Below, in pieces: positions 1,514 through 62,275 of a stretch of 64,000 nucleotides of DNA. The translations under genes and the position numbers were made by a program. Location: assembly GCF_988242995.1 (NCBI RefSeq), contig NZ_OZ547043.1. One strand, written 5' to 3'. Under the pieces are notes generated by a model that made no database searches, had not been told where the DNA came from, and saw only the letters and a list, made by a program, of their open reading frames with translations. Position 1 is the stretch's first letter, and each line of letters begins with the position of its first letter.

Positions 1514-2920
1514 TTAATCCAGCCATTCAGTATGGAACACACCTTCTTTATCAGTACGCTTATAGGTATGCGCACCAAAGTAGTCACGTTGAGCCTGGAT
1601 CAGGTTAGCCGGCAATACGGCTGCACGGTAGCTGTCGTAGTAGGCAACGGCAGCAGAGAAGGTCGGTACCGGGATGCCATTTTGAACCGCGTAAGCAACA
1701 ACATCACGTAACGCCTGCTGATACTCATCAGCGATATTCTTGAAGTACGGATCCAGCAGCAGGTTAGCAATACCCGCATTCTTCGCGTAGGCATCGGTGA
1801 TCTTCTGCAGGAACTGCGCACGAATAATGCAGCCGGCACGGAAAATCTTCGCGATCTCACCGTAATTCAGATCCCAGTGGTACTCGTCAGACGCTGCGCG
1901 CAACTGAGAGAAACCTTGTGCATAGGAAACAATTTTACCGAGATACAGCGCACGGCGTACTTTCTCAATAAACTCAACTTTGTCACCCGCAGGGTGCGCT
2001 TTCGGACCAGTCAGGACCTTAGAGGCAGCAACGCGCTGATCTTTCAGTGAGGAGATGTAACGCGCAAAGACCGATTCAGTAATCAGCGACAGCGGTTCAC
2101 CGAGATCCAAAGAGCTCTGGCTGGTCCACTTACCGGTACCTTTGTTAGCCGCTTCGTCCAGAATGACATCAACAAGGTATTTACCCTCTTCATCTTTTTT
2201 GGTGAAGATGTCTTTTGTGATGTCAATCAGGTAGCTGCTCAACTCACCGTTGTTCCACTCAGTAAAGGTACTGGCCAGCTCTTCATTAGAGAGGTTCAGG
2301 CCGCCTTTCAGCAGAGAATAGGCCTCAGCGATAAGTTGCATGTCACCATATTCAATACCGTTGTGAACCATCTTCACATAGTGGCCTGCACCATCCGCAC
2401 CGATGTAAGTCACGCAAGGCTCGCCATCTTCAGCAACTGCGGCGATCTTAGTCAAAATCGGCGCAACCAGCTCGTAGGCTTCTTTCTGACCGCCCGGCAT
2501 GATAGAAGGCCCTTTCAGCGCCCCCTCTTCACCACCGGAAACGCCGGTGCCAATGAAGTTGAAACCTTCAGCGGAAAGTTCGCGGTTACGACGAATGGTG
2601 TCCTGGAAGAAAGTATTGCCACCATCAATAATGATGTCGCCTTTATCCAGATACGGTTTCAGAGAATCAATGGCTGCATCGGTACCCGCGCCTGCTTTCA
2701 CCATTAACAGGATACGACGAGGCGTTTCGAGGGATTCAACGAACTCTTTCACCGTGTAGTAAGGCACCAGTTTCTTGCCCGGGTTCTCGGCAATCACTTC
2801 TTCGGTCTTTTCACGGGAGCGGTTGAACACGGAGACGGTATAACCACGGCTCTCGATGTTGAGCGCCAGGTTGCGCCCCATCACTGCCATGCCGACGACG
2901 CCGATCTGTTGCTTGGACAT
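1514..2920 (-). CDS. gnd: 6-phosphogluconate dehydrogenase, decarboxylating
   Basis: 468-aa ORF; [30 protein letters not shown] is the conserved Gnd N-terminus; correct length. Confidence 0.95.
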
Positions 2921-3100
2921 TACATACTCCTGTCAGGTGTGGTCACCGCGCGACGTATGCGCGGCTTGAATGTATAGCAAATGTTAACCTATGTCCGTTT
3001 GAAAAAAAACGAAAATCAATTTAACGAATGTCGGAAATAGGTAACCAGTTGCTGTTTCATAACATATGCTGCGCTCCGATAAATACTTATTCTCTGTTAT

Positions 3101-3967
3101 TCACTTTCCAATTAATTGAAATAAATATTGACCATACTGTGTTTTCTCCATAATCCTGGCCTCAGTCAGGACCTGCTCCGCAGTCAGCCATTTATTGCGC
3201 AAAGCTATTTCTTCTAAGCAAGCAACTTTATATCCTTGACGCTTTTCGATAGTATGAACAAATTGAGAAGCTTCAATAAGGCTATCATGTGTTCCCGTAT
3301 CCAACCAAGCGAACCCCCTTCCCAAGAGTTCTACATTAAGCATATCCCGCTCAAGATACATTTTATTTATTGAAGTGATTTCAAGCTCACCACGAGGAGA
3401 TGGTTTAACTTGCTTTGCAAAATCCACCACCTGATTATCATAGAAATAGAGTCCAGTTATGGCCCAATTAGATTTTGGTGTTTGTGGCTTCTCTTCGACA
3501 GAGAGCACCTTAAATGATTCGTCAAATTCTACAATGCCAAATCGTTCAGGATCCATAACCTGATAGCCAAAAACTGTAGCTCCTCTTTTTCTGGAAGCCA
3601 CCTGTTCCAGTTTGCGACCGAAACTTTGACCGAAGAAAATATTATCCCCTAAAACCAGGGCACATTCATCACCAGCGATGAACTCTTCACCAATAATAAA
3701 AGCCTGCGCCAACCCATCAGGACTTGGTTGAATAGCATATTGAAGGTTAATTCCAAACCGGGATCCGTCTCCTAGCAGGCGTTTATACGATGATAAGTCC
3801 TCGGGAGTAGAAATAAGAAGTATATCTTTTATCCCTGCCAGCATTAATACTGAAATAGGGTAATATACCATTGGCTTATCATAAATAGGTAGGAGCTGTT
3901 TTGATACCCCTCGAGTAATCGGATAAAGTCGGGTACCAGAACCTCCCGCTAATATAATTCCTTTCAT
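3101..3967 (-). CDS. rmlA: Glucose-1-phosphate thymidylyltransferase
   Basis: 288 aa; [46 protein letters not shown] is the RmlA/RfbA nucleotidyltransferase signature. Confidence 0.85.
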
Positions 3968-4111
3968 TGCTTACCTTCTCTATATAATCTTCAAATATTA
4001 TCGCATTAACTTTTAAGTAAATTTTAAAAATGCAGTGCAATAAACATTCAGTTTAAATAAGCTTGACATTAGAAATATCTCCAGCTTATTTACTTGTATT
4101 AAATGTCACAT

Positions 4112-4642
4112 TTAATCTAATTTTTTTAGGTATGTCGCTGGAGTGCCGCCTACTAATTCCTTTTCACCGACATCTTTTAGAACTACAGAATTTGCTGCAA
4201 CTATAGCTCCATTGTTAATAACAATAGGTCCCAAAATAACAGATCCAGTGGCCAATATAACATCGTTGCCAATAACAGGACGAAGTTCCTTGTTATATTT
4301 CATATCAAGTGTTTTTGCACCAATAGTGACATTTTGATATATAGTGCAGTTTTCACCTATACGCGCCGCACCGATAACTATGCCAAAGGTATGTGGTATG
4401 AAAAGTCCACCTTTAATCTCACATTCAGTTGCGATCTCAATGTTAAAAATGAGGACGTTTAAAAGTGAACAACATTTTGATATTCTTCTGAATCCTTTTT
4501 CTTTTAAAGAATAGGATGTCCTATATATTACATTGGGAATCAAACGAGGGCTAAAAATTCTAAAATAGTCTTTAAATTTAAAAGCAGATTCATTCCCAAT
4601 CAATTCTTTATATCTTTGAATATCTTGTTGTATATTTTTCAT
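4112..4642 (-). CDS. Hexapeptide-repeat O-acetyltransferase (CysE/LacA/WbbJ-like)
   Basis: 176 aa; left-handed beta-helix hexapeptide repeats (IGAARIGENCTIYQNVTIGAK, IGNDVILATGSVILGPIVINNGAIVAANSVV). Confidence 0.7.
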   Translation of the reverse strand: MKNIQQDIQRYKELIGNESAFKFKDYFRIFSPRLIPNVIYRTSYSLKEKGFRRISKCCSLLNVLIFNIEIATECEIKGGLFIPHTFGIVIGAARIGENCTIYQNVTIGAKTLDMKYNKELRPVIGNDVILATGSVILGPIVINNGAIVAANSVVLKDVGEKELVGGTPATYLKKLD

Positions 4643-5699
4643 TTTTTATTCCTGCGTATCCTGCTAAAAACACCAGATATAGCCAAAACATAGGGAAAAG
4701 GAAGGTTAGTTTAAGGCAGGGGAGCAGGCATAATAACATCAATCTAAGTGAGAATCGTGAATATTTTAGGAACAATACCAGCCATGATACACTAAGGATA
4801 CTGCCTAACCAAAAGCCAAAAACGATGAAATTACTTCCGAATAACGTCATATCAAAAAGAGACTGAAAATAGTCTGGTGCATTGTCATAATACCCAACCA
4901 TACCGTGGCCAATATTAAAAACAAGAGGGCTATCAAAGAATGATTTCATCAACTCAAGTTTATATGATGTGCTACCATCACTACCAGATGAAATATAAGA
5001 CATACGCCACATAATGTTTTGATATATTATCGGAGAAACCAGTACTAACGATATTAACCCGGTTGCGATCCACTTTAGTGTCAATCTACAGGTAAGAATA
5101 AAAAATAACATAACGCAGATAACAGAGAAAGTCGAACCGGATAACACCATACACATTAATGCTATATAACTTAGTAATGAGTTATTATTAGCTACAATAT
5201 ACCTCATCACTAATAATGTGACCATATGTATAGAGAAAATACTCGGTTCGGCAAATACTCCTGTTGCTCTGTAATCGAAACCGTCATAACTGCTACGGTG
5301 TGGAGGACCTAACAAGAACTTCCCATAATCGATATCCACATTAATGATTTTGAAAGCTAAATACTGCAACAGGAAAGTAAAAATGTGAAACTTGATGCAA
5401 AAATCGATCACCTTAAGCCAGTCACAGCTTTTAATTCTTTTTACACAATAGCTATAGATTGATGGTACTGTCAATGCATAAAAGCAGCATACCAAAGTAA
5501 AAATAAATATTTTATCCACTACGCCAAAGAATACATGAAAAATAAGCGATGTGAACGATACCAGAATAAATATCAACCCTTGCGATGAAACCTTACATTT
5601 ACCCTGTATAAACACCAGAAAAAAAACGCAAAACTGAATAATAAAAAAAACCGGACTAAAAATGAAAAGAGTACCAAAAAGAAAATATATATTAGCCAT
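4608..5699 (-). CDS. wzy: O-antigen polymerase
   Basis: 363-aa very hydrophobic, AT-rich, multi-spanning membrane protein with a large internal loop, located in an O-antigen cluster; no close sequence recognised, as is typical for Wzy. Confidence 0.55.
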   Translation of the reverse strand: MANIYFLFGTLFIFSPVFFIIQFCVFFLVFIQGKCKVSSQGLIFILVSFTSLIFHVFFGVVDKIFIFTLVCCFYALTVPSIYSYCVKRIKSCDWLKVIDFCIKFHIFTFLLQYLAFKIINVDIDYGKFLLGPPHRSSYDGFDYRATGVFAEPSIFSIHMVTLLVMRYIVANNNSLLSYIALMCMVLSGSTFSVICVMLFFILTCRLTLKWIATGLISLVLVSPIIYQNIMWRMSYISSGSDGSTSYKLELMKSFFDSPLVFNIGHGMVGYYDNAPDYFQSLFDMTLFGSNFIVFGFWLGSILSVSWLVLFLKYSRFSLRLMLLCLLPCLKLTFLFPMFWLYLVFLAGYAGIKNEKYTTRYSKI

Positions 5700-6669
5700 T
5701 TCTTTCCCTTTTTGAATAACCCTCTATATAATACATAGCCAAGACTAACTTGTAAAATATTGCTCTGATTTTAAATTTATTCCTATTGTCTAACTTATTA
5801 AGAACAACCCTTACAAATTTATTAAGTTTAATACTATTAGCGCAAGACAAAGCTACTCTAAGCACAGTTGACTTCATACTACCTTTCCGCTCAGCCTGGG
5901 GAAATAGCAATTTATCTACAATTTCAGGATGTTTCTTAACCAAAAGCGGTACTGAGTACCTTGCATAAGGAATCATTCTTTCACATGCCCTATCGAGGGT
6001 AGGGGTGTCGTTATCGTAGAGTAAAGCATCGCTACAAAAGAAAAACGGAACAGAGCTTAAACGAAGCCGCGCCCCAAATTCTTCATCCTCACAACCATAA
6101 TGCCGGAATGATTCATCGAACCCTTTCTGTGCTTCAAACTCGGATTTGCTAATCAGGAAAGCATCGCTTGCAAAGTAGCGATACTCAATTTTAACAGTTC
6201 CTTTATATCTATTCCCCAAATATCGGGAGTCAAAGTAGTGTAGGTAATTGCTGTCGCGGGTTAAATCTTGCCGACATCTGACATTAGCCCTTGCTACAAA
6301 AGGCTTCTCGCAGGACAAAATCATTGAATGCAGGCTATCAAGACAACCTTGCTGGAGCAAATTGTCTATGTCGACAAAAAATAACCATTCATTGCTTGCT
6401 GATTTCGCAGCTCTATTTCGAGAAAAGGCGCGACCTTCATTTATTTCATTACGTAAGAACACTAACCGCCATTCGCGCTCATTAAATTTTTCAGAAAAGG
6501 CAATAGTTGTGTCTTCCAAATTCACCTCAGAACCGTCATCGATGATGATAAGTTCAATATTCTTTAGTATATTCTTTTGTCCATGAGTATTAGCGAGCAG
6601 AGCTGAGATGAAAGTTTCTACTTTTGATGAGCTACCGAGAACAGGGCTAATAATGCTAATCATTTGCAC
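5692..6669 (-). CDS. Family 2 glycosyltransferase
   Basis: 325 aa; N-terminal ISIISPVLGSS...ELIIIDDGS matches the GT-A nucleotide-sugar binding and DxD region. Confidence 0.75.
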   Translation of the reverse strand: MQMISIISPVLGSSSKVETFISALLANTHGQKNILKNIELIIIDDGSEVNLEDTTIAFSEKFNEREWRLVFLRNEINEGRAFSRNRAAKSASNEWLFFVDIDNLLQQGCLDSLHSMILSCEKPFVARANVRCRQDLTRDSNYLHYFDSRYLGNRYKGTVKIEYRYFASDAFLISKSEFEAQKGFDESFRHYGCEDEEFGARLRLSSVPFFFCSDALLYDNDTPTLDRACERMIPYARYSVPLLVKKHPEIVDKLLFPQAERKGSMKSTVLRVALSCANSIKLNKFVRVVLNKLDNRNKFKIRAIFYKLVLAMYYIEGYSKRERNG

Positions 6670-7918
6670 GTTCCATTAAATATTTTTTAGTTACAGTTAA
6701 ATACCAATAGATTGAAACTAATATTGAAAAGAAAAGAGAAATATATAATGCAATAAAGATGCTTGGTATCGGCGCAGTAATAGCAGAGACTTTCAATGCG
6801 CTATAGATGCTCAGACATAATAAAAATACAAGACACCATTTAATGGTGTAATAGTAGTAACTCTTTGATGCAAGGTTAGCTGCGTTGATCAAATTATCGA
6901 CAGCAAAAAATGGCAACAAAAAGACCAGAATATTATAATAATTTGCCGATGTGACATAGTCATGGCCGAAAACAAATGTAAAGATATATGGTGTAAATGG
7001 CTTTAACGAAAATGAGAATAACGAAAAAGCAGTAAACATTATTATGGATAAGACAATAAGATTTCTGTTGAAAATTTTCCACTTCTTGTTTTTGTATAAA
7101 AGGATGGGGGCCAAAACCTGTATCAATATTAAGGTTACTGAAGCTGTATTCTCATTAATCTGTGATGCAGCACTATATATACCATAATCAACTGGTGAAA
7201 TGTTACCTTTCAGTAAGAATCTGTCAATTTTCATAAATAATGCATAGGCTACAACCCCTCCCCAGATGAAAAAACTGCGTTTTAACAGGAAGCCTATATC
7301 ATTTAGTCTAACAAGACTTATTCTGGGGAACTTACAAATTGAACAACAGTACATGACTATCGCAACAAAAATGCCCTCCAGTACCCATGGCAATGCAAGG
7401 AACTTGATATCGAAATTTATCACTATAAATAAGTAATATAGTGTTAGTATCCTGATAATGCAGCCAAAGATCTGGATGATACCTGAGAGGTATAATTTCC
7501 CTTCAGATTGCCATTTTGCAAAGCCTACCATCAATGGCTCTCGTGCCAAGAGAGTAACGGACGAAAATAGCAAGTAATACCTTACAATCTCACTTTCAGC
7601 TGTAATTGCGAGGATTACACTGACAGTAGCGACTAATGATGATACAGATAATCTTGCAAAAAAAATTGTATTACAATAAATCAATTTCTTGCGTAATGAA
7701 TAGCGCGATAACTGAGGGACAACTGATTCTGACCCGCACATCCAAGTTAGTGACATTAAAATATTTGAAAAAGTAAATGCATATTGCCAAATGCCAAACT
7801 GCTCAATTGGAAGCGCTTTTGAGATAAGATGGTTAGCATAAATAGCACTAATAATCTGTACAAATCGCTCAAACAACAGGACAAGCAATCCCGCAATAAT
7901 TGATTTATTCACGAACAC
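6656..7918 (-). CDS. wzx: O-antigen flippase
   Basis: 420-aa polytopic membrane protein (about 12 hydrophobic segments) of the polysaccharide-transporter type, located in the O-antigen cluster. Confidence 0.7.
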   Translation of the reverse strand: MFVNKSIIAGLLVLLFERFVQIISAIYANHLISKALPIEQFGIWQYAFTFSNILMSLTWMCGSESVVPQLSRYSLRKKLIYCNTIFFARLSVSSLVATVSVILAITAESEIVRYYLLFSSVTLLAREPLMVGFAKWQSEGKLYLSGIIQIFGCIIRILTLYYLFIVINFDIKFLALPWVLEGIFVAIVMYCCSICKFPRISLVRLNDIGFLLKRSFFIWGGVVAYALFMKIDRFLLKGNISPVDYGIYSAASQINENTASVTLILIQVLAPILLYKNKKWKIFNRNLIVLSIIMFTAFSLFSFSLKPFTPYIFTFVFGHDYVTSANYYNILVFLLPFFAVDNLINAANLASKSYYYYTIKWCLVFLLCLSIYSALKVSAITAPIPSIFIALYISLFFSILVSIYWYLTVTKKYLMERAND

Positions 7919-8903
7919 CTTCCGGTGAGATTATTTTTTTCACCCATTGCTGTAAAGAATATTGTTCTCTATTTTTGTAATTAACATTCGGTGCGTTAAT
8001 AAAATTCTCAGGTACTATGACCTGATGTCTTTTTACTACGCAGATCATATTAGGGTCATAAAAATCGTACTTTTTTATGTCTTCATTCGTGGTAATAATT
8101 TTTTTATTTAACCCGATGCATTCTATTGTTCGCATTGTCAGACCGCGCTGCCTTGGATGATGAATATCGATGATAATTTCAGAGCACTTCATCATTTCAA
8201 CAACTTCAGATTGTGATAATGGTTCAAATTCTACGTCTGTATTTATTTTTTTTCCGCTTAATAAATTCTTCAGTTTAAAAATAATTTCATTCTGAAAATA
8301 AAAGAATGTATAAGCATTAATGTCTTTAATATTTCTTACTTCAGCAGTAATGCAATTGACCAAATCAACGCGATCTGAATGAGCTGTACCGATAAAACAA
8401 AGATCGTATTTTAGCGAATGCTCATGCTTATTGTCAAAACGCGGCGAATAAAACAGCGGAAGAAATGTTACTCCCCATTTTTCAGCATCATCACGTTCAA
8501 AGGTGAAAACCGAATCAAACTGATTTATTATTCTTTTAACTTTGGGTTTGTTATTGACCGAATCCCACAAATACATAATGAATTTACAGTGTTCATTTTT
8601 TACTTTAACGGTTTTTTTTATGGCCTGTAAAATTTCATGATCAATTGCTTCAGGATTTAAAATAAATACATTATCGATTTTTTTGTTGACAATTTGCCGT
8701 AGTAATTTTTTATAATAACTTGAGTTATACTTTTTAATCAAAATACTACAACCTAACCTTAGCAATGATTTATAAATAGCATTATTGCTCGGCCGCTCAT
8801 CCCAATAGATAACGTCATTAGTTAATTCTAATTCTTTGACTATTTCTTTTTCATAATTAAAAAACTTGGGAGAAATAAACAATACTGTATTTTTGTACCC
8901 CAT
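7905..8903 (-). CDS. Hypothetical protein, candidate glycosyltransferase of unrecognised family
   Basis: 332-aa soluble ORF, AT-rich, overlaps wzx start by 14 nt (operonic). No motif I can assign; context suggests the second sugar transferase of the O-unit. Confidence 0.45.
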   Translation of the reverse strand: MGYKNTVLFISPKFFNYEKEIVKELELTNDVIYWDERPSNNAIYKSLLRLGCSILIKKYNSSYYKKLLRQIVNKKIDNVFILNPEAIDHEILQAIKKTVKVKNEHCKFIMYLWDSVNNKPKVKRIINQFDSVFTFERDDAEKWGVTFLPLFYSPRFDNKHEHSLKYDLCFIGTAHSDRVDLVNCITAEVRNIKDINAYTFFYFQNEIIFKLKNLLSGKKINTDVEFEPLSQSEVVEMMKCSEIIIDIHHPRQRGLTMRTIECIGLNKKIITTNEDIKKYDFYDPNMICVVKRHQVIVPENFINAPNVNYKNREQYSLQQWVKKIISPEGVRE

Positions 8904-8904
8904 T

Positions 8905-9720
8905 TTATCTTCCCTGAGATTTTTTGAATTCTTTTATCATATCCACTAAATCATTCAATACATTTTTATAATGATGTGGGACTATTGAGTTAGTTTTTTG
9001 CATCGTGATAACAGGAAATGTTTCGCATGTATCATTCTTGTGCCACTGTATATTACAACCTGTTTCAGATATTAAAATGTCAGCGATGGATTTTGCTGAA
9101 ACATTATATCCAGATGCAATGTTATAAATATCTCCGGGTGAAGTTATAGATTCTGCTAGCTTATACATGACGGCAACCACATCATCTACCGATACATAAT
9201 CCTTCTCGTAGTCAGAGCTAACATACATATCGACATGATTGTTATTGATTGCATTTTTTATTATTTGCGGAAGGAATAACGGGCTATTTAGTGCGAGTCC
9301 ATAAACATTTGATGGTCGGACGACCACAACGTTCTTTTTACTTCTTAGACATAACTCTTCAGCAACCAATTTTGTCAAATTGAAAAGCTTGCGACCATCA
9401 TTGTGACAAATTTTTAGATCTGAATTTTCTGCAGAATCTCTGGAGTTCAAATATACACGAGTGGAAGAAATGTAGACTAATTTCTGGAAATTAGCTTGTG
9501 TAAGTATTACTTTTAGCTTATTGACATTTGCATCCACAACATTATAGGCATCACTTTTGCAATCGCCATAGCCTGCGCAATAAAAGACGGTACCAAGGTC
9601 AATTTCTTTGTTATAAAGATAGTCTCTGTCAGGGCAGAAACATTCTTTATTCATTGATTCTAAAAATGTTACCATATGTGAACCAATGAAACCTGAACTA
9701 CCAACGACTGTATACTTCAT
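8905..9720 (-). CDS. NAD(P)-dependent sugar epimerase/reductase (SDR family), candidate dTDP-4-keto-6-deoxyhexose 4-reductase
   Basis: 271 aa; N-terminal Rossmann motif VVGSSGFIGSHMV; lies between the rmlC-like gene and the orphan ORF; does not resemble canonical RmlD. Confidence 0.55.
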   Translation of the reverse strand: MKYTVVGSSGFIGSHMVTFLESMNKECFCPDRDYLYNKEIDLGTVFYCAGYGDCKSDAYNVVDANVNKLKVILTQANFQKLVYISSTRVYLNSRDSAENSDLKICHNDGRKLFNLTKLVAEELCLRSKKNVVVVRPSNVYGLALNSPLFLPQIIKNAINNNHVDMYVSSDYEKDYVSVDDVVAVMYKLAESITSPGDIYNIASGYNVSAKSIADILISETGCNIQWHKNDTCETFPVITMQKTNSIVPHHYKNVLNDLVDMIKEFKKSQGR

Positions 9721-9782
9721 AATACTATAGCCTTTTGCTCTATGTATTAATAATGACAGGAAGCTAATTTAAACTGTTATGC

Positions 9783-10325
9783 TTATAAGCTAGCTTCTTT
9801 AAATTCTGAAAAACTAATTAACGCGTTGTCTTTAGATGACATAATTGGCATGTCTATCGGCCATTGTATATTCAGTTCTTTGTCATTCCAGATTATCCCC
9901 CCTTCATCGGTAGGATCATAGAAGTCTGTGCATTTGTAATGGAAATCCGCATACTCACTTAATACACAAAAACCATGTGCAAATCCAGGTGGGATATAGA
10001 TTTGATTATTTTTATCCCCAGAAAGTATAACACCTACATGCTTTCCAAAAGACGAAGATCCAGGTCTTAAATCAACAGCCACATCAAAAACTTCTCCACT
10101 GATGACACTTACTAATTTACCTTGAGGATTATTTTTTTGAAAATGTAAACCTCGAAGCACATTTCTTGCTGAGCGTGATCGATTATCTTGTACAAATGCC
10201 TCAGTTATTCCTATGTCGTGATATTTCTTCTGATGCCATGCTTCCAAAAAGAAACCACGAGAGTCACCAAAGACTTTTGGCTCAATGATTACACAACCAG
10301 CAAGTGGAGTCTCAATTACCTTCAT
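9783..10325 (-). CDS. rmlC: dTDP-4-dehydrorhamnose 3,5-epimerase family protein
   Basis: 180 aa; cupin-fold RmlC motifs EPKVFGDSRGFF, NVLRGLHFQ, GFAHGF. Confidence 0.8.
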   Translation of the reverse strand: MKVIETPLAGCVIIEPKVFGDSRGFFLEAWHQKKYHDIGITEAFVQDNRSRSARNVLRGLHFQKNNPQGKLVSVISGEVFDVAVDLRPGSSSFGKHVGVILSGDKNNQIYIPPGFAHGFCVLSEYADFHYKCTDFYDPTDEGGIIWNDKELNIQWPIDMPIMSSKDNALISFSEFKEASL

Positions 10326-10396
10326 AATTATAAACCTTGTATTATATTTTTTAAATTTGCTAATTTTTGATACAATTTAGCTACCTTTATCAGTTA

Positions 10397-11479
10397 CTAA
10401 CGCATCTTGTAGTTCTGCTCAATCCAGGTTTGGTACGCCCCACTTTTGATATTTTCAACCCATGAGGTGTTTGCCAGATACCATTCAACCGTTTTGCGAA
10501 TCCCACTTTCGAACGTCTCTTGCGGTTTCCAACCGAGCTCACGGCTGATTTTATCCGCATCGATCGCGTATCGACGGTCATGGCCTGGACGATCGGCAAC
10601 ATAGGTGATTTGTTCACGGTATGACACTGCTTTAGGTACGATCTCATCCAGCAGGTCGCAGATGGTATGTACAACATCGAGATTTTTCTTCTCGTTATGG
10701 CCACCGATGTTGTAGGTCTCACCAGGGATTCCTTTCGTCACCACGGTATATAACGCACGGGCATGGTCTTCAACATAGAGCCAGTCGCGAATCTGATCGC
10801 CTTTACCATAAATGGGTAACGATTTCCCTTCGAGAGCATTGAGAATAACCAAGGGAATCAACTTTTCAGGGAAATGGTATGGGCCATAGTTATTCGAACA
10901 GTTGGTCACCATTGTTGGAAGACCGTATGTACGCAGCCAGGCACGAACGAGATGGTCGCTGGAGGCTTTTGAAGCCGAATAAGGACTACTCGGCGCATAG
11001 GCGGTTTGTTCCGTGAAGAGAGGAAGAATACTCCCCTGCGCAACCTCATCCGGATGCGGTAAATCCCCATAAACTTCATCAGTAGAGATGTGATGGAAGC
11101 GGAATGTCGCCTTTCGCGCACTATCCAGTGAGGACCAGTATTGACGGGCTGTTTCTAAAAGAACATAAGTACCCACAATATTCGTTTCAATAAATGCAGC
11201 AGGGCCTGTAATTGAACGGTCAACATGGCTTTCAGCAGCCAGGTGCATCACTGCATCCGGCTGATGCTGAGAAAAAATTCGCGCCATTGCAGCAGCATCG
11301 CAAATATCCGCATGTTCAAAAACATAGCGTTCAGAATCAGAAACATCAGCAAGTGATTCCAGGTTTCCGGCGTACGTTAATTTATCGACATTAACAACAC
11401 TATCCTGCGTATTATTTATAATGTGACGAACTACAGCAGAACCAATAAATCCTGCGCCACCAGTAACAAGTATCTTCAC
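10397..11479 (-). CDS. rmlB: dTDP-glucose 4,6-dehydratase
   Basis: 360 aa; [43 protein letters not shown] matches RmlB/RfbB almost residue-for-residue. Confidence 0.92.
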
Positions 11480-11553
11480 TTATTTATTCCATATAACTTC
11501 AGAGCATGCTGTGAAATAAGCGGCTCTTAGGTTGATTAATAGAGGTGTTAATG

Positions 11554-11592
11554 CACGCTACCGCCCCTGGCTTTACAGCTACCAGAGCACTA
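11554..11592 (-). promoter_or_regulatory. JUMPstart element with ops site (RfaH-dependent antitermination) upstream of the O-antigen operon
   Basis: Minus-strand reading is cagtgctctggtagctgtaaagccaggggcGGCGGTAGCGTG; the ops core GGCGGTAGCGTG is the reverse complement of 11554-11565. Confidence 0.8.
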
Positions 11593-11850
11593 CATGCATG
11601 TCTACGATGTGACGAGCGTTACCCACTCGCGCTAAACCCGAAAAATTCAAACGCTAATTGTCTTACCAATCCGCTCTGGAAACAAGGAAAATCCTGGAAA
11701 ACTTTGACTAAAATCCTATTGCTAACTCGTTGTTATTCTGATTGTTTATATAAAACAACGGCAGGAATATTCGCAACAAATTACTTTCGCCACGAATCTT
11801 CACTGTCGTTATAATTTTCTTATCAACCGTTACATCCGGTCAGATTTTCA

Positions 11851-12744
11851 TTATTCGCTTAACAGCTTCTCAATCCCTTTACGGAACTTCGCCCCTTCTT
11901 TGAGGTTGCGTAGTCCATACTTCACAAATGCCTGCATATAACCCATTTTTTTACCGCAGTCGTAACTGTCCCCAGTCATCAGCATGGCATCAACGGACTG
12001 TTTTTTCGCCAGCTCGGCAATAGCATCAGTCAGCTGAATACGTCCCCATGCACCAGGCTGAGTACGTTCCAGTTCCGGCCAAATATCGGCAGAAAGCACA
12101 TAGCGACCAACGGCCATGATGTCTGAGTCCAGCGTCTGCGGCTGATCCGGTTTTTCGATAAATTCGACGATGCGGCTGACTTTACCTTCACGATCCAGTG
12201 GTTCTTTGGTCTGAATGACGGAGTATTCAGAGAGGTCACCCGGCATACGTTTTGCCAGCACCTGGCTGCGGCCCGTTTCATTGAAGCGCGCAATCATGGC
12301 AGCAAGGTTGTAGCGCAGCGGGTCGGCACTGGCGTCGTCGATCACAACGTCCGGCAATACCACAACAAATGGGTTGTCACCAATGGCGGGTCGTGCACAC
12401 AAAATGGAGTGGCCTAAACCTAAAGGTTCGCCCTGACGCACGTTCATAATGGTCACGCCCGGCGGACAGATGGACTGTACTTCCGCCAGCAGCTGACGCT
12501 TCACGCGCAGTTCAAGGAGAGATTCTAATTCATAAGAGGTGTCGAAGTGGTTTTCGACCGCGTTTTTGGACGCGTGAGTTACCAGGAGGATTTCTTTGAT
12601 CCCTGCAGCCACAATCTCGTCAACAATGTACTGAATCATTGGCTTGTCGACGATCGGTAGCATCTCTTTGGGAATCGCCTTAGTAGCAGGCAACATATGC
12701 ATCCCTAGACCCGCTACAGGAATAACTGCTTTTAAATTCGTCAT
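11851..12744 (-). CDS. galF: UTP-glucose-1-phosphate uridylyltransferase-like regulatory subunit
   Basis: ORF track gives 11851-12756; conserved GalF N-terminus [44 protein letters not shown] starts at the internal Met (12744). Confidence 0.9.
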
Positions 12745-12918
12745 TATTTCATCCACCTGTAAAATGGTTGCTGAATTATAGCTTGTTCGATTTTTTTCGC
12801 CAGCATCAATTACCCTGAATTGATTACTGAATTACTTGTGATGTTACGCCGCTTCGTTGTGGATTGCAGTAGCATTGTTCCTAAGTATGGCTCCATTTTT
12901 CCAGGAATGGTCGCAAAT

Positions 12919-14313
12919 CTACTCCCTCCGTTCCGGCAATCTAAAGTTAATCTTTTCCACATTAACAATATGGTGATTTATCCTGTCGATATCGACGGAG
13001 CTTTGCCCTCTTTCATTCACCGCATGAACATTTGCAAGAGATAGCAGTGTTTCTTTTTTCGCCATAAAGACGCCGCGAACGTCTTTGCGCATGTCAAAGT
13101 TCATGCTCAATGCTGGTCCAACAGAGGATTTCTGCATCACCTTGATATTACGCATAAAAAGGTGTTGCGGTTTATTGTGTAGCTCAAGCGAGGCACGCTT
13201 CATCTCAATGTTAGTCAGTGCCACAAAGGAGACAGCATTCCCGGCGGAGATTTGGATGCCGCGCAATTTATAAGCAAGGTGAGTGTTATCCAGTTGAATA
13301 TTATTCACTCGGAAATTTTGCGGTATCGAGAGATATTTGCCTTTAATTACCCCATAGCCAATTAACATCCCGGCGCTATTAATCATTTCAATATTATCAA
13401 TCACGAATTTGTCACAACCGTAAATAGCGACTGTGGCGTTATCAATGCCTGCTTTCTTACTGAAATCCGGCGTGATATTGCGGGCTTTGATATTACGAAT
13501 AACAAAATGTTTACCATTTTCAACATGTATCAACTGCCGACAATCCGATCCCGTGATATTCGCCACGACAAAGTTTTTCACTGCCTGATCTTCCGGGTAA
13601 TTATTATCGTAAGTGCTTCCCGCAAGGCCTATGCCAATGCCCCAGTTGATTTTGCCGTTAGTACAGTTGATGCGCTCGATGACATGGTCGGAGATCAAAA
13701 TATCACTGTCGTTAATTGCCACGTTCCATTCAATGGCGTCGCCCTGTAAGTCGCTGAACTTACAGTTGGTGATGTTGGCACCGATTATCTGGTTATGAAA
13801 TCCCTGGCGTAAGATGGCGTAATTAGCGTGGCTAACGGTCAGGTTATCGATGGTCAGGTTGCGCATGACCCGTTTGTTTTTGCCGCCGATATAAATCTGC
13901 GTTACCGGACCAAAGCCGCTCATCGCCAGCCCTTTGATGGTGCAGTCAGAGCCGCGCACATCCAGGGTGATGTTATGCATACTGCCGCCCTCCTCCCCTG
14001 TCACCTGGCTGCCGTCCTGTAAGATAAATCGCCCTCTGCCGTTGCCGCGCAGGCTTCCAAGGATGTGTAACGTTTTACCTGCAGGAATGAAGATGCCGGT
14101 GTTGATATTGTCGCAAACCAATCCGGCAGGCACGACGACCGTTTGCCCTTCGCTGAAGGCTTGTTTAAATGAGGCGATCCAGTCGTGAGGGTTGTAGTCG
14201 TTAATGTTAACGCTTTGTCGGGCGGGAAGTGCGCGAGCGAAAGGGGTATGGAGGAAGGCAAGGGCCGAGCTTGCCGTCAGGAAGGTGCGTCGGGAGAGTT
14301 TTTTAAATGGCAT
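12919..14313 (-). CDS. wcaM: Colanic acid biosynthesis protein WcaM
   Basis: 464 aa; [28 protein letters not shown] is an RR-type signal peptide; position and length fit WcaM. Confidence 0.9.
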
Positions 14314-16882: not shown

Positions 16883-17069
16883 GCCTGATGCGACGCTGAC
16901 GCGTCTTATCAGGCCTACAAGACCCGAGCACAGAACCGTAGGCCGGATAAGGCGTTCACGCCGCATCCGGCATTCAGTGCCTGATGCGACGCTGACGCGT
17001 CTTATCAGGCCTACAGGTCCCGAGCACAGAACCGTAGGATGGATAAGGCGTTTTACGCCGCATCCGGCA
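16883..17069. repeat. BIME: four alternating REP palindromes
   Basis: gcctgatgcgacgctgacgcgtcttatcaggcctaca occurs twice, alternating with inverted gtaggccggataaggcgttcacgccgcatccggca-type copies, between wcaK and wzxC. Confidence 0.85.
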
Positions 17070-19971: not shown

Positions 19972-19991
19972 CGTTGTTCCTGTTATATTGT

Positions 19992-20095
19992 CGCCTCGCC
20001 CCTCACCCCGGCCCTCTCCCCAAAGGGGCGAGGGGGAGAAGAAAGTTCCGTGCTCACTTCTCTCCGCAGGCAGTAGAGCGTCAGGGTGAGGGGGA
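19992..20095. repeat. GC-rich imperfect palindromic element
   Basis: tcgcccctcaccccggccctctcccc aaa ggggcgagggggagaag ... cagggtgaggggg; nested complementary C-rich and G-rich blocks between wcaJ and cpsG. Confidence 0.4.
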
Positions 20096-20106
20096 AAGTA
20101 ATGACA

Positions 20107-21477: not shown

Positions 21478-21567
21478 ATCGTTACCCTTTTTCAGGCAAT
21501 AGTTGGTCCTGACCGAAGCGGCCAATTTTATTTTTGTCGTTATTTACACCGCGGTTTCGCATTCATT

Positions 21568-28237: not shown

Positions 28238-28247
28238 GTTCTTATTC

Positions 28248-31984: not shown

Positions 31985-32046
31985 AGGTTGTTCTCCCGGA
32001 GTGTCGAGATGTTCTGCCGGTTTATAAGCTTGTTTACGGGTTCTGT

Positions 32047-32151
32047 TGCCGGATGCGGCGTGAGCGCCTTATCCGGCCTACGGAGCTGGTTTGCTTGCCG
32101 GATGCGGCGTGAAGGTAGGTCGGATAAGATGCGTCAGCATCGCATCCGACA
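32047..32151. repeat. REP/BIME palindromic repeats
   Basis: tgccggatgcggcgtgagcgccttatccggcctac and gccggatgcggcgtgaaggtaggtcggataagatgcgtcagcatcgcatccgaca between wcaA and wzc. Confidence 0.8.
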
Positions 32152-32161
32152 GCGGATGTCG

Positions 32162-34775: not shown

Positions 34776-35915
34776 TTACCAGTTATGAATGTCGCTGGCT
34801 GTATCCGTCATGTAACGGACACCGCTAATAGTTGGCAGCAACTGATTGATCAGACGGTTCCAGCGGGAAACCGGGGCGGTGGTGACATACACCACGTCAT
34901 AAGGTTGCAGGCGGAATTCTGTCGCCATCACCAGCGACGTGGCATCGGACATATCCAGCTGGTAGATATTGGCAATCTTGCCGTTACGCCCGCCCTCGCC
35001 TTTCAGCGGACGAATGACAAAGATGCCGCTGGCGTTGGAGGTGGTCATGTCGATGCCTTCAGCATTGCCCAGGGCTTCGGTCAGGGTCATGCCGCTAAAG
35101 TCCATTTTCAGGGTGCTCTGTTTCTTCACTTCACCCATCACAAATACTTTCAGATCATCATTACGTGGCACGTAGAGAATATCGCCGGGGTAAAGCAGGC
35201 GATTCTGGTTGAGGTCGCCGTTTTGCATCAGCGCCTGCAAAGAAATGCGTTCTTCACGACCATTGTGTGTTAACACCACGTTGCGCCAGTCAGCGGTGTC
35301 GGTCAGGCCACCTGCGGCGTTGATGGCGTCGAGAATAGTCAGTGGCACGTTGGTGATCGCCTGTTGACCGGATTTATTCACCTGACCGGAGATATAGGCC
35401 TTTTGTGAGCGGAAGGCGGCGATATTAACGTCCACCTGCGGGTCAGCGATGTACGTCGCTAAGCGCCCGGTAATATCACTGCGGATTTCAGCGAGCGTTT
35501 TCCCGACTACGTGAACCTTGCCGATATACGGGTAGAACATAGTGCCGTCAGGCTGTACCCAGTTGCCGGTGTCGCTGGAGCTGCGGTACTGACCAGCTGG
35601 CGTGGTGAGTTCCGGGTGATCCCAGACGGTGACATTAAGAACGTCGCCCGGCCCGACGCGATACTGGTAATTCGCGATCTCACTTTCCAGCGTCATATTG
35701 GGGCGCGCTACATTCGGGCGTGGGCGTAATTGGTCAATCAGGCGCGGGGTCAACGGATAAACATTCACCATTTTGTCGAGATCGAAATCAGCGTCCTGCT
35801 GTTTGATGACGTCTTTGCCCATCGTCGACATATTGCTGCCCGGAAGTACTGTGCAACCGCTTATCAAGGTTACTGACACCAATAATGGCATCAATTTCAT
35901 TTTGGATTTCATCAT
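34776..35915 (-). CDS. wza: Outer-membrane polysaccharide export lipoprotein
   Basis: 379 aa; [21 protein letters not shown] lipoprotein signal with lipobox LISGC. Confidence 0.92.
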
Positions 35916-36093
35916 TGTTTATTTATCACTTTGGCAGAGTAATTATCCTGTGCACTATTAATAGCAATGTCGCCATGCACATTTACCTTGCAGTTAATTG
36001 AATAAAAATTTAACTGGCATCAGTCCTAAAAAAATTGATTTCATCCGCAGGCTATTGACAGAATAATTCAGACTGGTCTTTCAGGCATCCAGA

Positions 36094-36132
36094 CACGCTA
36101 CCGCCCCTGGCTTTTTAGCTACCAATACACTG
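36094..36132 (-). promoter_or_regulatory. JUMPstart element with ops site in the colanic acid operon leader
   Basis: Minus-strand reading is cagtgtattggtagctaaaaagccaggggcGGCGGTAGCGTG; near-identical to the O-antigen JUMPstart at 11554-11592. Confidence 0.8.
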
Positions 36133-36572
36133 ATTTAGCTTAATTTTTCAAACCCTCTCTGCATACAATCGTTGATGAGAAAGGGTTATTGCGGAAATTA
36201 ACTTCCGAATATAAGGTGACATTATGGTAATTGAATATTGGCTCTCCAATAATGCAGGAGGAAGTGTTACAGCTAACGGAATAGCAGGCAAGGTAACAAT
36301 TCGGCAATTGGCTATTTTTAAGAATTATATTAAGTGTCATTCAATATGGTTTTTAGGAGTTTCTTTAGGTTGACAATATTTAATATTGCGTCTCCACATG
36401 CGATATTTCTTAAATATGTTTTATTATTACCACTTTTAATTCAGGGATAATGTGAGGTTATTACCCTCAAATAATATGAGATAAATAGTGCTGCAACATT
36501 GCATTTTTGCCCCGATTTATCCATGATCGAATTGTGACATTTGTCATACAACGAATAGGTTTTGTACTTACT

Positions 36573-38156: not shown

Positions 38157-38162
38157 TGGCAT

Positions 38163-38205
38163 GTAGGCCTGATAAGACGCGTAAAGCGTCGCATCAGGCC
38201 TACAG
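38163..38205. repeat. REP palindrome
   Basis: tgtaggcctgataagacgcgtaaagcgtcgcatcaggcctaca, a perfect inverted repeat between the convergent yegH and asmA. Confidence 0.85.
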
Positions 38206-38223
38206 GACAGGTCACCTGGTAAC

Positions 38224-50796: not shown

Positions 50797-50977
50797 AAGA
50801 AATCCTTTCTTAGAGAATTATCGAGGTCCGGTATCATACCGATTGCAATAATGAAATAAGAGCAAACGAAGAAACTTTCAGAATTAGGCCCGGCGGCGCA
50901 GAAAATTTTGCTATTCGCCTCGCAAGAACGGAGAGCCGTCGATTGACACTAAGGGCGGAGTGACATAATTTCAGGAG

Positions 50978-51125
50978 TGAGGGTTAGGGAGAGGTTTCCC
51001 CCTCCCCCTGGTGTTCTTAGTAAGCCTGGAAGCTAATCACTAAGAGTATCACCAGTATGATGACGTGCTTCATCATAACCCTTTCCTTATTAAAAGCCCT
51101 CTTCTCCGGGAGAGGGTTTCCCGTT
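50978..51125 (+). ncRNA. sibA: Sib antitoxin sRNA, unit 1 (SibA-like)
   Basis: Sigma70-like promoter TTGACA (50943-50948), 17-nt spacer, TAATTT (50966-50971); terminator stem ccctct (51097-51102) / agaggg (51111-51116) followed by TTTCCCGTTT; fully antisense to ibsA. Ends are approximate. Confidence 0.6.
51017..51076 (-). CDS. ibsA: Type I toxin Ibs, 19-aa hydrophobic peptide
   Basis: Minus-strand ORF atgatgaagcacgtcatcatactggtgatactcttagtgattagcttccaggcttactaa = MMKHVIILVILLVISFQAY; SD-like aaggaaaggg upstream; not in the ORF track (below 60 aa). Confidence 0.75.
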   Translation of the reverse strand: MMKHVIILVILLVISFQAY

Positions 51126-51312
51126 TCAGCGTCCCGCTGAAATCGTCGGCTTACCTCCTTTCGCCCTGAATGCAGTCTATCGCTAACGCGTGAACAAAAT
51201 AGTTTCCTCTGTGATTATTGCGTAACGACTCGCAAAGAATATTTGCTGGCAGGATCGCAGACTGCAAAGCCTGCGGATTGACAATCTTATCGTGAAGGCA
51301 TAATTTCAGGAG

Positions 51313-51454
51313 TGAGGGTAGAGCGGGGTTTCCCCCGCCCTGGTAGTCTTAGTAAGCGGGGAAGCTTATGACTAAGAGCACCACGATGATGAGTAGCTTC
51401 ATCATGACCCTTTCCTTATTTAAGGCCCCTTCCTCGGGAGGGGCTTTCCCGTTT
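51313..51454 (+). ncRNA. sibB: Sib antitoxin sRNA, unit 2 (SibB-like)
   Basis: TTGACA (51278-51283), 17-nt spacer, TAATTT (51301-51306); terminator stem gcccct (51425-51430) / aggggc (51439-51444) plus T-tract; antisense to ibsB. Ends are approximate. Confidence 0.6.
51349..51405 (-). CDS. ibsB: Type I toxin Ibs, 18-aa hydrophobic peptide
   Basis: Minus-strand ORF atgatgaagctactcatcatcgtggtgctcttagtcataagcttccccgcttactaa = MMKLLIIVVLLVISFPAY. Confidence 0.75.
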   Translation of the reverse strand: MMKLLIIVVLLVISFPAY

Positions 51455-51640
51455 CAGCGTCCCGCTGAAATCGTCGACTTACCTCCTTTCGCCCTGTATG
51501 CAGTCTATCGCTGACTTGCGGATAAAATAGTTTCCAGTGTGATTATTGCGTAACGTCTCGCAAAGAATATTTGCTGGCAGGATCGCAGACTGCAAAGCCT
51601 GCAGATTGACAATCTTATCGTGAAGGCATACTTTCAGGAG

Positions 51641-51782
51641 TGAGGGTAGAGCGGGGTTTCCCCCGCCCTGGTAGTCTTAGTATGCTGGGTAGCTAATCAC
51701 TAAGAGCACCACGATGATGATCCACTTCATCATGACCCTTTCCTTATTTAAGGCCCCTTCCTCGGGAGGGGCTTTCCCGTTT
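51641..51782 (+). ncRNA. Sib-family antitoxin sRNA, unit 3
   Basis: TTGACA (51606-51611), 17-nt spacer, TACTTT (51629-51634); terminator stem gcccct (51753-51758) / aggggc (51767-51772) plus T-tract; antisense to the third ibs ORF. Ends are approximate. Confidence 0.55.
51677..51733 (-). CDS. Ibs-family type I toxin, divergent third copy (18 aa)
   Basis: Minus-strand ORF atgatgaagtggatcatcatcgtggtgctcttagtgattagctacccagcatactaa = MMKWIIIVVLLVISYPAY; same ATGATGAAG start and SD context as units 1 and 2. Confidence 0.65.
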   Translation of the reverse strand: MMKWIIIVVLLVISYPAY

Positions 51783-60875: not shown

Positions 60876-62275
60876 AGTTCTGGCGACCCGGTATTACCGG
60901 CAAACTGTTTCTGGCGATTTTCGCCACCTGCATTGTCTTGCTGATCAGTATGCACTGGGCGGTGCGTATCAGTTTTGAGCGTGGCTTTATTGATTACATC
61001 AAGCATGGTAATGAACAGCGATTACAACTGTTAAGTGATGCGCTTGGCGAGCAGTATGCGCAGCATGGCAACTGGCGCTTCCTGCGCAACAATGATCGCT
61101 TTGTCTTTCAGATCCTGCGTTCATTTGAACACGAAAATTCGGAAGATAAACCCGGCCCGGGTATGCCGCCGCACGGCTGGCGTACCCAGTTCTGGGTGGT
61201 TGATCAAAACAACAAAGTGCTGGTTGGTCCGCGAGCGCCGATTCCACCTGACGGTACACGGCGACCCATTCTGGTCAACGGTGCGGAAGTGGGTGCGGTG
61301 ATTGCCTCCCCTGTTGAGCGACTGACCCGCAATACTGATATCAATTTCGATAAACAACAGCGGCAAACCAGCTGGCTGATTGTCGCCCTGGCTACGTTAC
61401 TCGCGGCACTCGCCACCTTTCTGCTGGCGCGTGGTCTGTTGGCCCCGGTCAAACGGCTGGTGGACGGCACGCACAAACTGGCGGCGGGCGATTTCACTAC
61501 CCGCGTGACACCCACCAGTGAAGATGAACTGGGCAAACTGGCGCAAGACTTCAACCAGCTTGCCAGCACGCTGGAGAAAAACCAGCAAATGCGGCGCGAT
61601 TTTATGGCCGATATTTCTCACGAACTGCGTACGCCATTAGCGGTGCTGCGCGGTGAACTGGAAGCCATTCAGGATGGCGTGCGTAAATTCACGCCGGAGA
61701 CGGTGGCGTCTTTACAGGCGGAGGTCGGTACACTGACCAAACTGGTTGACGATCTCCATCAGTTGTCGATGTCTGATGAAGGCGCTCTCGCCTATCAAAA
61801 AGCACCGGTAGATTTGATCCCACTGCTGGAAGTAGCGGGCGGCGCATTTCGCGAACGATTCGCCAGCCGTGGCCTGAAACTGCAATTTTCCCTGCCAGAC
61901 AGTATTACCGTATTTGGCGATCGCGACCGTTTAATGCAGTTATTCAATAACTTACTGGAAAACAGCCTGCGCTACACTGACAGCGGCGGTAGCCTGAAAA
62001 TCTCTGCCGAGCAGCACGACAAAACGGTGCGACTGACCTTTGCCGACAGCGCGCCGGGCGTCAGTGACGATCAGCTACAAAAATTGTTTGAACGTTTTTA
62101 TCGCACCGAAGGTTCCCGCAACCGAGCCAGCGGCGGTTCCGGGCTGGGGCTGGCGATTTGCCTGAACATTGTTGAAGCACATAATGGTCGCATTATTGCT
62201 GCCCATTCGCCTTTTGGCGGGGTAAGCATTACAGTAGAGTTACCGCTGGAACGGGATTTACAGAGAGAAGTATGA
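60872..62275 (+). CDS. baeS: Envelope-stress sensor histidine kinase
   Basis: 467 aa; two TM segments, HAMP region, H-box ISHELRTPL, ATPase G-box GGSGLGLAI; overlaps the mdtD stop by 4 nt. Confidence 0.92.

Follow-up and report, generated by a model that had tools for sequence, protein, structure and literature searches.

Two JUMPstart/ops elements in the O-antigen and colanic-acid leaders of an Escherichia coli his-linked polysaccharide region as likely RfaH loading sites

The leaders of the O-antigen and colanic-acid operons each contain a JUMPstart element ending in an ops core; these are considered, with a probability of roughly 0.93, to be the pair of chromosomal JUMPstart/ops sites that belong to the his-linked polysaccharide region of E. 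coli, acting as loading sites for RfaH. The window analyzed is a 64,000 nt stretch of contig NZ_OZ547043.1 (assembly GCF_988242995.1) that comprises ugd, gnd, the O-antigen operon, galF, wza-wcaM, and yegH. Both copies display every sequence-level feature of the JUMPstart family and of leader ops sites; they are already known elements, and an ordinary, almost universally conserved feature of this locus. Their predicted action, namely pausing of RNA polymerase (RNAP), binding of RfaH, and an effect on distal genes, is drawn for these two operons from the literature on orthologous loci.

When the whole window was scanned against Rfam, two full-length matches to the JUMPstart model RF01707 (gathering score 35) were obtained, each spanning model positions 1-38 of 38. 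The match in the colanic-acid (wza-wcaM) leader lies at 36094-36132 on the minus strand and scores 57.3 bits (E=1.6e-10); the match in the O-antigen (rfbB-rfbA) leader lies at 11554-11592, also on the minus strand, and scores 56.8 bits (E=2.2e-10). The initial annotation had placed a 39-bp JUMPstart at exactly these coordinates, and its assignment of both copies to the minus strand is borne out by the Rfam matches and by a pattern search; both operons are likewise on the minus strand. The ops core GGCGGTAGCGTG, which had been claimed for both leaders, was found by that pattern search as exact matches at 11554-11565 and 36094-36105, both on the minus strand, with no other mismatch-free site in the 64-kb window. 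In both copies ops forms the last 12 nt (G1-G12) of JUMPstart; the predicted RNAP pause at U11 corresponds to position 36095 in the colanic-acid leader and to 11555 in the O-antigen leader. Positions G4, G5, T6, A7, G8, T11, and G12 of GGCGGTAGnnTG, whose importance has been demonstrated by mutagenesis (PMC5995543), are all intact in both leaders.

The two 39-mers have 33 of 39 bases (85%) in common, and the six differences all fall in the 5' part; the 3' 21 nt, AAAGCCAGGGGCGGTAGCGTG, are identical. Their earlier description as near-identical is therefore accurate for the ops half, but slightly generous for the 5' half. In-register identity outside JUMPstart is at background level (2-7 of 13 positions per block) and the flanks are unrelated; as the similarity drops immediately outside JUMPstart, the element appears as a discrete conserved unit rather than as part of a duplicated segment. 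The looser published form of ops, GGCGGTAGNNTG, has three matches in the window against 0.12 expected, and none of 100 shuffles reaches three; a chance origin of the two elements is excluded. The third match to the ops consensus, GGCGGTAGCCTG at 61985-61996 on the plus strand, is located on the non-template strand inside baeS (identified as BaeS by NCBIfam); in strain CFT073, the 34 intragenic ops-like sites bind no RfaH (PMC9765446).

Both ops sites are intergenic, precede the first start codon, and belong to the non-template (coding) strand of their leftward operons; conserved promoter-like blocks lie further upstream. The attribution of the elements to the O-antigen and colanic-acid leaders was confirmed: the former is in the galF-rfbB gap, 74 nt before the GTG start, and the latter in the yegH-wza gap, 178 nt before the ATG start. 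They had also been put forward as fixed landmarks for the operon 5' ends; they appear to mark the 5' untranslated leaders, but not the 5' ends themselves, as the candidate promoters are further upstream. The minus strand carries ugd (99-1265), gnd (1514-2920), galF (11851-12744), and wcaM (12919-14313), all placed from the S88 annotation and the ORF list; yegH is found on the plus strand beyond wza. The O-antigen operon, of the S88-variant O45 type, occupies 3101-11479 on the minus strand and contains nine genes over approximately 8.4 kb (S88 annotation and ORFs), in the order rfbB, rfbC, an epimerase/dehydratase, a glycosyltransferase, wzx, a GT2 glycosyltransferase, wzy, an acetyltransferase, and rfbA. 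The first of these, rfbB (10397-11479, minus strand), has a GTG start, and the last, rfbA, is located at 3101-3967 on the minus strand; both were identified by NCBIfam matches. The colanic-acid operon (wza-wzb-wzc-wcaA...wcaM) occupies 12919-35915 on the minus strand, approximately 23 kb, and contains 20 intact ORFs when compared with the S88 annotation; its first gene, wza (34776-35915, minus strand, NCBIfam match), has an ATG start.

The GC content of the O-antigen operon is 36.5% and that of the wza-yegH intergenic region 34.7%, against 51-54% in neighboring genes; judged from base composition, the AT-richness of the O-antigen operon and of the wza promoter region would fit that of H-NS-bound targets. 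The rml genes of the O-antigen operon are split: rfbB and rfbC stand at its 5' end, and rfbA comes last, 8.4 kb from ops; polarity would therefore directly affect nucleotide-sugar supply. The operon does not contain rfbD, and a 271-aa NAD-dependent epimerase/dehydratase is encoded there instead.

Bases 2900-12900 of the window are 100% identical to E. coli S88 and to 35 other complete genomes, in which wzx is annotated as an 'S88 variant O45 family O-antigen flippase'. The identity to S88 is 100% from base 1 to approximately 13.9 kb, a part that holds ugd and gnd, the O-antigen operon of the O45 variant together with its JUMPstart, galF, and the 3' part of wcaM; beyond this it is 95-99% (1-5% diverged), and the best complete-genome match for 12901-37900 reaches only 98.9%. 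The identity breakpoint at approximately 13.9 kb, together with the divergence beyond it, indicates that the O-antigen module moved between backbones; the recombination junction is at approximately 13,900, inside wcaM (12919-14313). It could be argued from this horizontal replacement, in which an O-antigen block including JUMPstart matches S88 perfectly while the colanic-acid region has diverged, that the elements are chiefly conserved recombination landmarks flanking exchangeable polysaccharide modules and not transcription signals; this is extremely unlikely, as the breakpoint is at neither JUMPstart, the O-antigen copy travelled within the exchanged block, and a role in transcription is indicated by the strand-specific leader position and by how well the ops core is conserved. 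With the breakpoint inside wcaM, JUMPstart was ruled out as a boundary of the exchanged O-antigen block.

The reading of the elements as RfaH loading sites is consistent with their distribution. Of 5426 complete E. coli genomes, 5425 contain a JUMPstart-like sequence, at a median of three places per genome, and the wza (cps) leader is present in 4818 complete E. coli genomes; rfaH, which itself lies outside the window, is found at the species level in 5425 of the 5426. Because JUMPstart, the wza leader, and rfaH are so widespread in E. coli, two JUMPstarts approximately 24.5 kb apart are the normal state of the locus. Through tblastn the order yegH-JUMPstart-wza was found in five other genomes (Citrobacter werkmanii, two Enterobacter spp., Superficieibacter electus, and one further Enterobacter sp.), and the order galF-JUMPstart-first O-antigen gene in seven (E. 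albertii, E. cloacae, Rahnella, Superficieibacter, and others); both positions are occupied in three of the sampled genomes, as in the window. The wza-leader JUMPstart also appears at the yegH-wza position in metagenomic relatives. In cross-genus alignments no island of either intergenic region is conserved as sharply as JUMPstart, which is also the only universally conserved island in the galF-to-first-gene intergenic regions of eight genomes; ops is unchanged in each of 19 distinct wza leader sequences taken from genomes and metagenome contigs.

A wider scan with the 14-mer GGGGCGGTAGCGTG, using one genome per species, gave at least 120 stretches, which are a sample and not a census. About two thirds of the stretches listed are chance matches in GC-rich genomes that lack JUMPstart features; the gammaproteobacterial stretches among those listed show JUMPstart clearly. 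Outside Enterobacterales, different hairpin-forming sequences precede GGGGCGGTAGCGTG at the same place (in sets of seven, three, and six stretches); the form AGGAA...TCCT is seen in Pseudomonas, Stutzerimonas, and Marinobacterium, and Marinobacter and Halomonas have their own versions. Signatures specific to either locus were sought in the two copies and found to be weak, with 16-23 of 26-27 positions agreeing either way; the one consistent locus trait is that the sampled wza-leader copies close the stem with U-G rather than C-G.

The mechanism proposed for both operons follows that described for orthologous loci. RNAP would start at a promoter upstream of each leader, the wza promoter being expected to be Rcs-activated and H-NS-silenced and the O-antigen promoter, downstream of galF, to be constitutive. 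On transcribing the 12-nt ops, RNAP would pause at U11, and the paused complex's non-template DNA strand would form a small hairpin (G2:C9, C3:G8, G4:A7), T6 being flipped out; autoinhibited RfaH would recognize this DNA hairpin and bind RNAP in place of NusG, upon which its KOW domain would refold. RfaH is then predicted to stay on RNAP for the rest of the operon, where it would reduce pausing and backtracking, prevent NusG-assisted Rho termination, and couple RNAP to the ribosome; the modified RNAP could pass H-NS/StpA filaments as well as internal structures, including the REP cluster that follows wzc, and the expected outcome is that distal genes are expressed (8.4 kb away in the case of rfbA, 23 kb in that of wcaM).

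Several of these steps have been described in the literature. The ops element halts RNAP at U11 and matches the consensus pause; substitutions at G4, G5, A7, and G8 abolish RfaH recruitment, while T11 and G12 govern the pause (PMC5995543; PMC11001881). In wild-type CFT073, RfaH is detected by ChIP from the leader ops of the O-antigen (wzx) unit onward, and a signal at wza-wcaM is seen only in a delta-hns delta-stpA background; the colanic-acid ops is unoccupied in the wild type in rich medium because its promoter is silenced (PMC9765446). RfaH is also reported to be needed for colanic-acid genes downstream of wzc (PMC3673037). The RfaH-dependent antitermination through both operons that was predicted by the initial annotation is supported by analogy, as it agrees with these published data for orthologous loci; use of the colanic-acid ops would be conditional on Rcs activation or relief from H-NS.

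It has to be considered whether the colanic-acid copy is a conserved but idle relic, with expression decided wholly at initiation by RcsAB, H-NS, and DsrA. This would account for the absence of an RfaH signal at wza in wild-type CFT073 in rich medium, and one review-type statement goes no further than 'presumably cps'; it is nevertheless very unlikely, since ops and its hairpin are invariant or nearly so in the wza leaders of at least six genera (19 distinct sequences) while the surrounding leader varies, and since RfaH loads at wza-wcaM once the promoter is de-silenced and is reported as required downstream of wzc.

Upstream of ops, both copies are able to form the conserved JUMPstart stem-loop of the Rfam consensus structure, which has the stem cUGGu/gCCAg and a 9-nt loop; its 3' end is 2 nt before G1 of ops, just upstream of the GGGCGGUAGCGUG tail. 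The 5-bp hairpin of the colanic-acid copy spans 36107-36125 on the minus strand, with arms at 36125-36121 (UUGGU) and 36111-36107 (GCCAG); that of the O-antigen copy spans 11567-11585 on the minus strand, with arms at 11585-11581 (CUGGU) and 11571-11567 (GCCAG). In an alignment of 23 JUMPstarts from several genera the stem pairing is kept in 92.7% of cells, compared to 23-65% for slid-partner controls, and compensatory (double-sided) changes are present at two of the five stem pairs (U-A to A-U; U-G to A-U, G-C, or C-G). G-U pairs are common, with UG in 15 rows at the inner pair and in nine at the outer, and RNAalifold applied to the wza leaders recovers the stem independently. Thermodynamic support is absent: the hairpins are predicted at -2.7 kcal/mol (colanic-acid) and -5.6 kcal/mol (O-antigen), with z from 0.08 to -1.6 against shuffled sequences, and the full 39-mers fold differently from the JUMPstart hairpin. 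The case for the putative hairpin is a comparative one only; the same stem-loop was reported for JUMPstart by Weinberg et al. (PMC2864571).

These observations raise the possibility that JUMPstart acts also, or mainly, as RNA, with the 5' hairpin being a functional part and not a passive spacer; this is held tentatively, as something that may be so but probably is not. At the U11 pause the stem would be at approximately -13, at the mouth of the RNA exit channel, where it could limit backtracking, tune the pause, or help to load RfaH or the ribosome. The conserved pairing, its compensatory changes, and its excess over the slid controls argue for such a role, as do the frequent G-U pairs (which suit RNA better than DNA), the unprompted recovery by RNAalifold, the published stem-loop (PMC2864571), and the different hairpins that precede ops at the same place outside Enterobacterales; however, the hairpin is weak and no better than shuffled sequence, the 23 aligned sequences are related, so that shared ancestry accounts for part of the signal, ops occurs without the 5' half in bona fide RfaH targets such as T6SS-type leaders (PMC9765446), and templates with ops alone suffice for RfaH recruitment in vitro (PMC5995543). 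An RNA-level role of the hairpin is compatible with the RfaH model and not opposed to it.

Further upstream, a candidate O-antigen promoter was recognized at 11657-11685 on the minus strand, with TTGTTT, a 17 nt spacer, and GACAAT; the columns CTTGT ... A.AAT appear partly conserved across genera. For wza, a promoter-like block, CCTTGCCTGCTATTCCGTTAGCTGTAACACTTCC, at 36260-36293 on the minus strand is conserved across six genera and is the candidate core promoter; upstream of it the block CTTAATATAATTCTTAAAA at 36316-36334, also on the minus strand, is near-invariant across six genera and is a candidate RcsAB-box-like sequence. The tentative assignment of this last block as an RcsAB box is based on the consensus TaAGaatatTCctA, with which it agrees at 10 of 14 positions by eye. 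The conserved footprint of the wza promoter and leader covers 35910-36376 on the minus strand, with further conserved blocks at 36376-36351, at 36071-36040 directly after JUMPstart, and at 35953-35910; the last is a near-invariant 44 nt block that reaches the wza ATG and has no obvious Shine-Dalgarno (SD) sequence. Generic scans of both operons for sigma-70 promoters and intrinsic terminators gave counts within the expectation from shuffling and were uninformative. Run on 16 wza leaders, RNAalifold gave no structure beyond the JUMPstart stem, a small stem at ops, and two mini-stems of invariant sequence; the compensatory pairs numbered zero, and covariation supported no RNA structure other than the JUMPstart stem. 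A 49-aa 'hypothetical protein' is annotated in S88 and in other RefSeq records on the plus strand, where it spans the wza promoter region (L001, the S88 stretch, 36167-36316); this ORF call is probably spurious.

The wza leader also contains a mini-ORF of eight codons, MPVKFLFN*, with its ATG at 36020 and its stop ending at 35994 on the minus strand, 73 nt downstream of ops. A conserved block, TTTTTTAGGAcTGATGCCAGTT (36034-36013), holds an SD-like TAGGA and the mini-ORF ATG, and the mini-ORF begins with ATGCCAGTT. The positions of start and stop are kept in 15 of 19 distinct wza leaders from several genera; the internal codons vary, partly synonymously (TTT TTA, TTT CTT, TTC TTA), and the stop is TAA or TAG. 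In three lineages the mini-ORF is longer or the ATGCCAGT start motif is altered. A fixed spacing from ops to the start codon (74 nt for rfbB, 73 nt for the mini-ORF) was rejected as coincidence, the distance being 23-309 nt across 22 other ops sites for which a downstream ORF was called. No description of the mini-ORF was found in the literature searched, and it is a lead rather than a result. It is conceivable, if rather unlikely, that the leaders hold more than the DNA ops, with the hairpin belonging to a pause/loading device (for example as a backtracking barrier) and the mini-ORF loading the first ribosome on RfaH-bound RNAP, so that coupling would be set before the SD-poor wza start.

The closest known system is the JUMPstart (RF01707) found in rfb and cps leaders of E. 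coli and Salmonella; it is the same 39-bp element at the same two loci, with the stem-loop and a 3'-terminal ops. JUMPstart was reportedly defined in these very loci by Hobbs and Reeves in 1994. Relative to the RF01707 consensus there is no difference of substance: the O-antigen copy of the window begins with T where the consensus has C, and the stem of the cps copy is closed by U-G in place of C-G. The ops/RfaH systems of waaQ (rfa), hlyCABD, kps region 3, and F tra have the identical 12-nt ops on the non-template strand in the leader of a long operon for envelope or secreted components, and in the genome sample waaQ-type and kpsM-type leaders show the same JUMPstart form as the window; their loci and promoters differ, and the colanic-acid unit is expected to be additionally gated by Rcs and H-NS at initiation. 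T6SS-type RfaH targets (tssH, c4518, and c1882 in CFT073) have an ops core in the 5' leader in common with the window, but in three enterobacterial leaders of this type the 5' half of JUMPstart, including its hairpin and GGTAGC repeat, is missing; JUMPstart and ops are thus not synonymous, the former being the polysaccharide-type context of the latter.

In the group 1 capsule leader of E. coli K30 and Klebsiella (galF-JUMPstart-wzi), JUMPstart is downstream of galF, as it is in the window; in those strains the capsule locus replaces colanic acid, whereas the window has the colanic-acid arrangement, with wcaM and without wzi. RfaH-dependent read-through of the group 1 capsule operon past a structure after wzc is said to have been described by Rahn and Whitfield in 2003. 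That this read-through is needed in K30/Klebsiella is also documented elsewhere (PMC6128206). More distant systems, comprising specialized NusG paralogs and processive antitermination signals (Bacteroides UpxY, LoaP, the Bacillus EAR/epsC RNA, and lambda nut/put), likewise use an operon-specific leader signal to make RNAP resistant to termination in long operons for polysaccharides or secondary metabolites; their signals and factors are different, EAR and put being RNA elements with a direct action on RNAP, whereas RfaH reads ops as non-template DNA.

For annotation the two elements are useful but routine, in that they fix both leaders and the strand, together with the likely dependence on RfaH of the O-antigen and colanic-acid operons; they would explain how the distal ends of a 23-kb operon and of an AT-rich, H-NS-prone 8.4-kb operon are expressed. 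RfaH is a virulence determinant in extraintestinal E. coli and the O-antigen cluster is the S88-type O45 of a neonatal-meningitis clone; the O-antigen ops is therefore considered part of a known virulence circuit. Current understanding is unchanged by the two elements.

Other features of the region were noted alongside the leaders. The wzc-wcaA intergenic region contains a REP/BIME structure at 31985-32161 on the minus strand, with a predicted fold of -62.7 kcal/mol (z = -5.05) and 0 of 200 shuffles as stable; from this modeled fold, the REP cluster may plausibly be an internal barrier that RfaH-modified RNAP would have to pass. The REP/BIME content of the colanic-acid operon gaps (31985-32161, 19972-20106, and 28238-28247) is unlike that of S88, and gap lengths differ from those in S88, the wzc-wcaA gap being approximately 49 bp longer, the wcaJ-cpsG gap approximately 81 bp longer, and the wcaE-wcaD gap approximately 70 bp shorter. 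A RelE/ParE-type toxin-antitoxin pair is found between yegH and asmA in S88 (L001, 38175-38793) and is absent from the window (38157-38223). Within the colanic-acid operon, an algC RNA motif (RF02929, 72.8 bits) is located at 21482-21531 on the minus strand in the cpsB-cpsG gap, just 5' of the phosphomannomutase gene, and a naRNA4/REP-type match (RF02564, 79.7 bits) at 16941-17011 on the plus strand in the wcaK-wzxC gap. Three tandem copies of SIB RNA (Sib antitoxin, RF00113), each scoring 139-150 bits, are present 5' of mdtA at 50943-51091, 51278-51420, and 51606-51748 on the plus strand.
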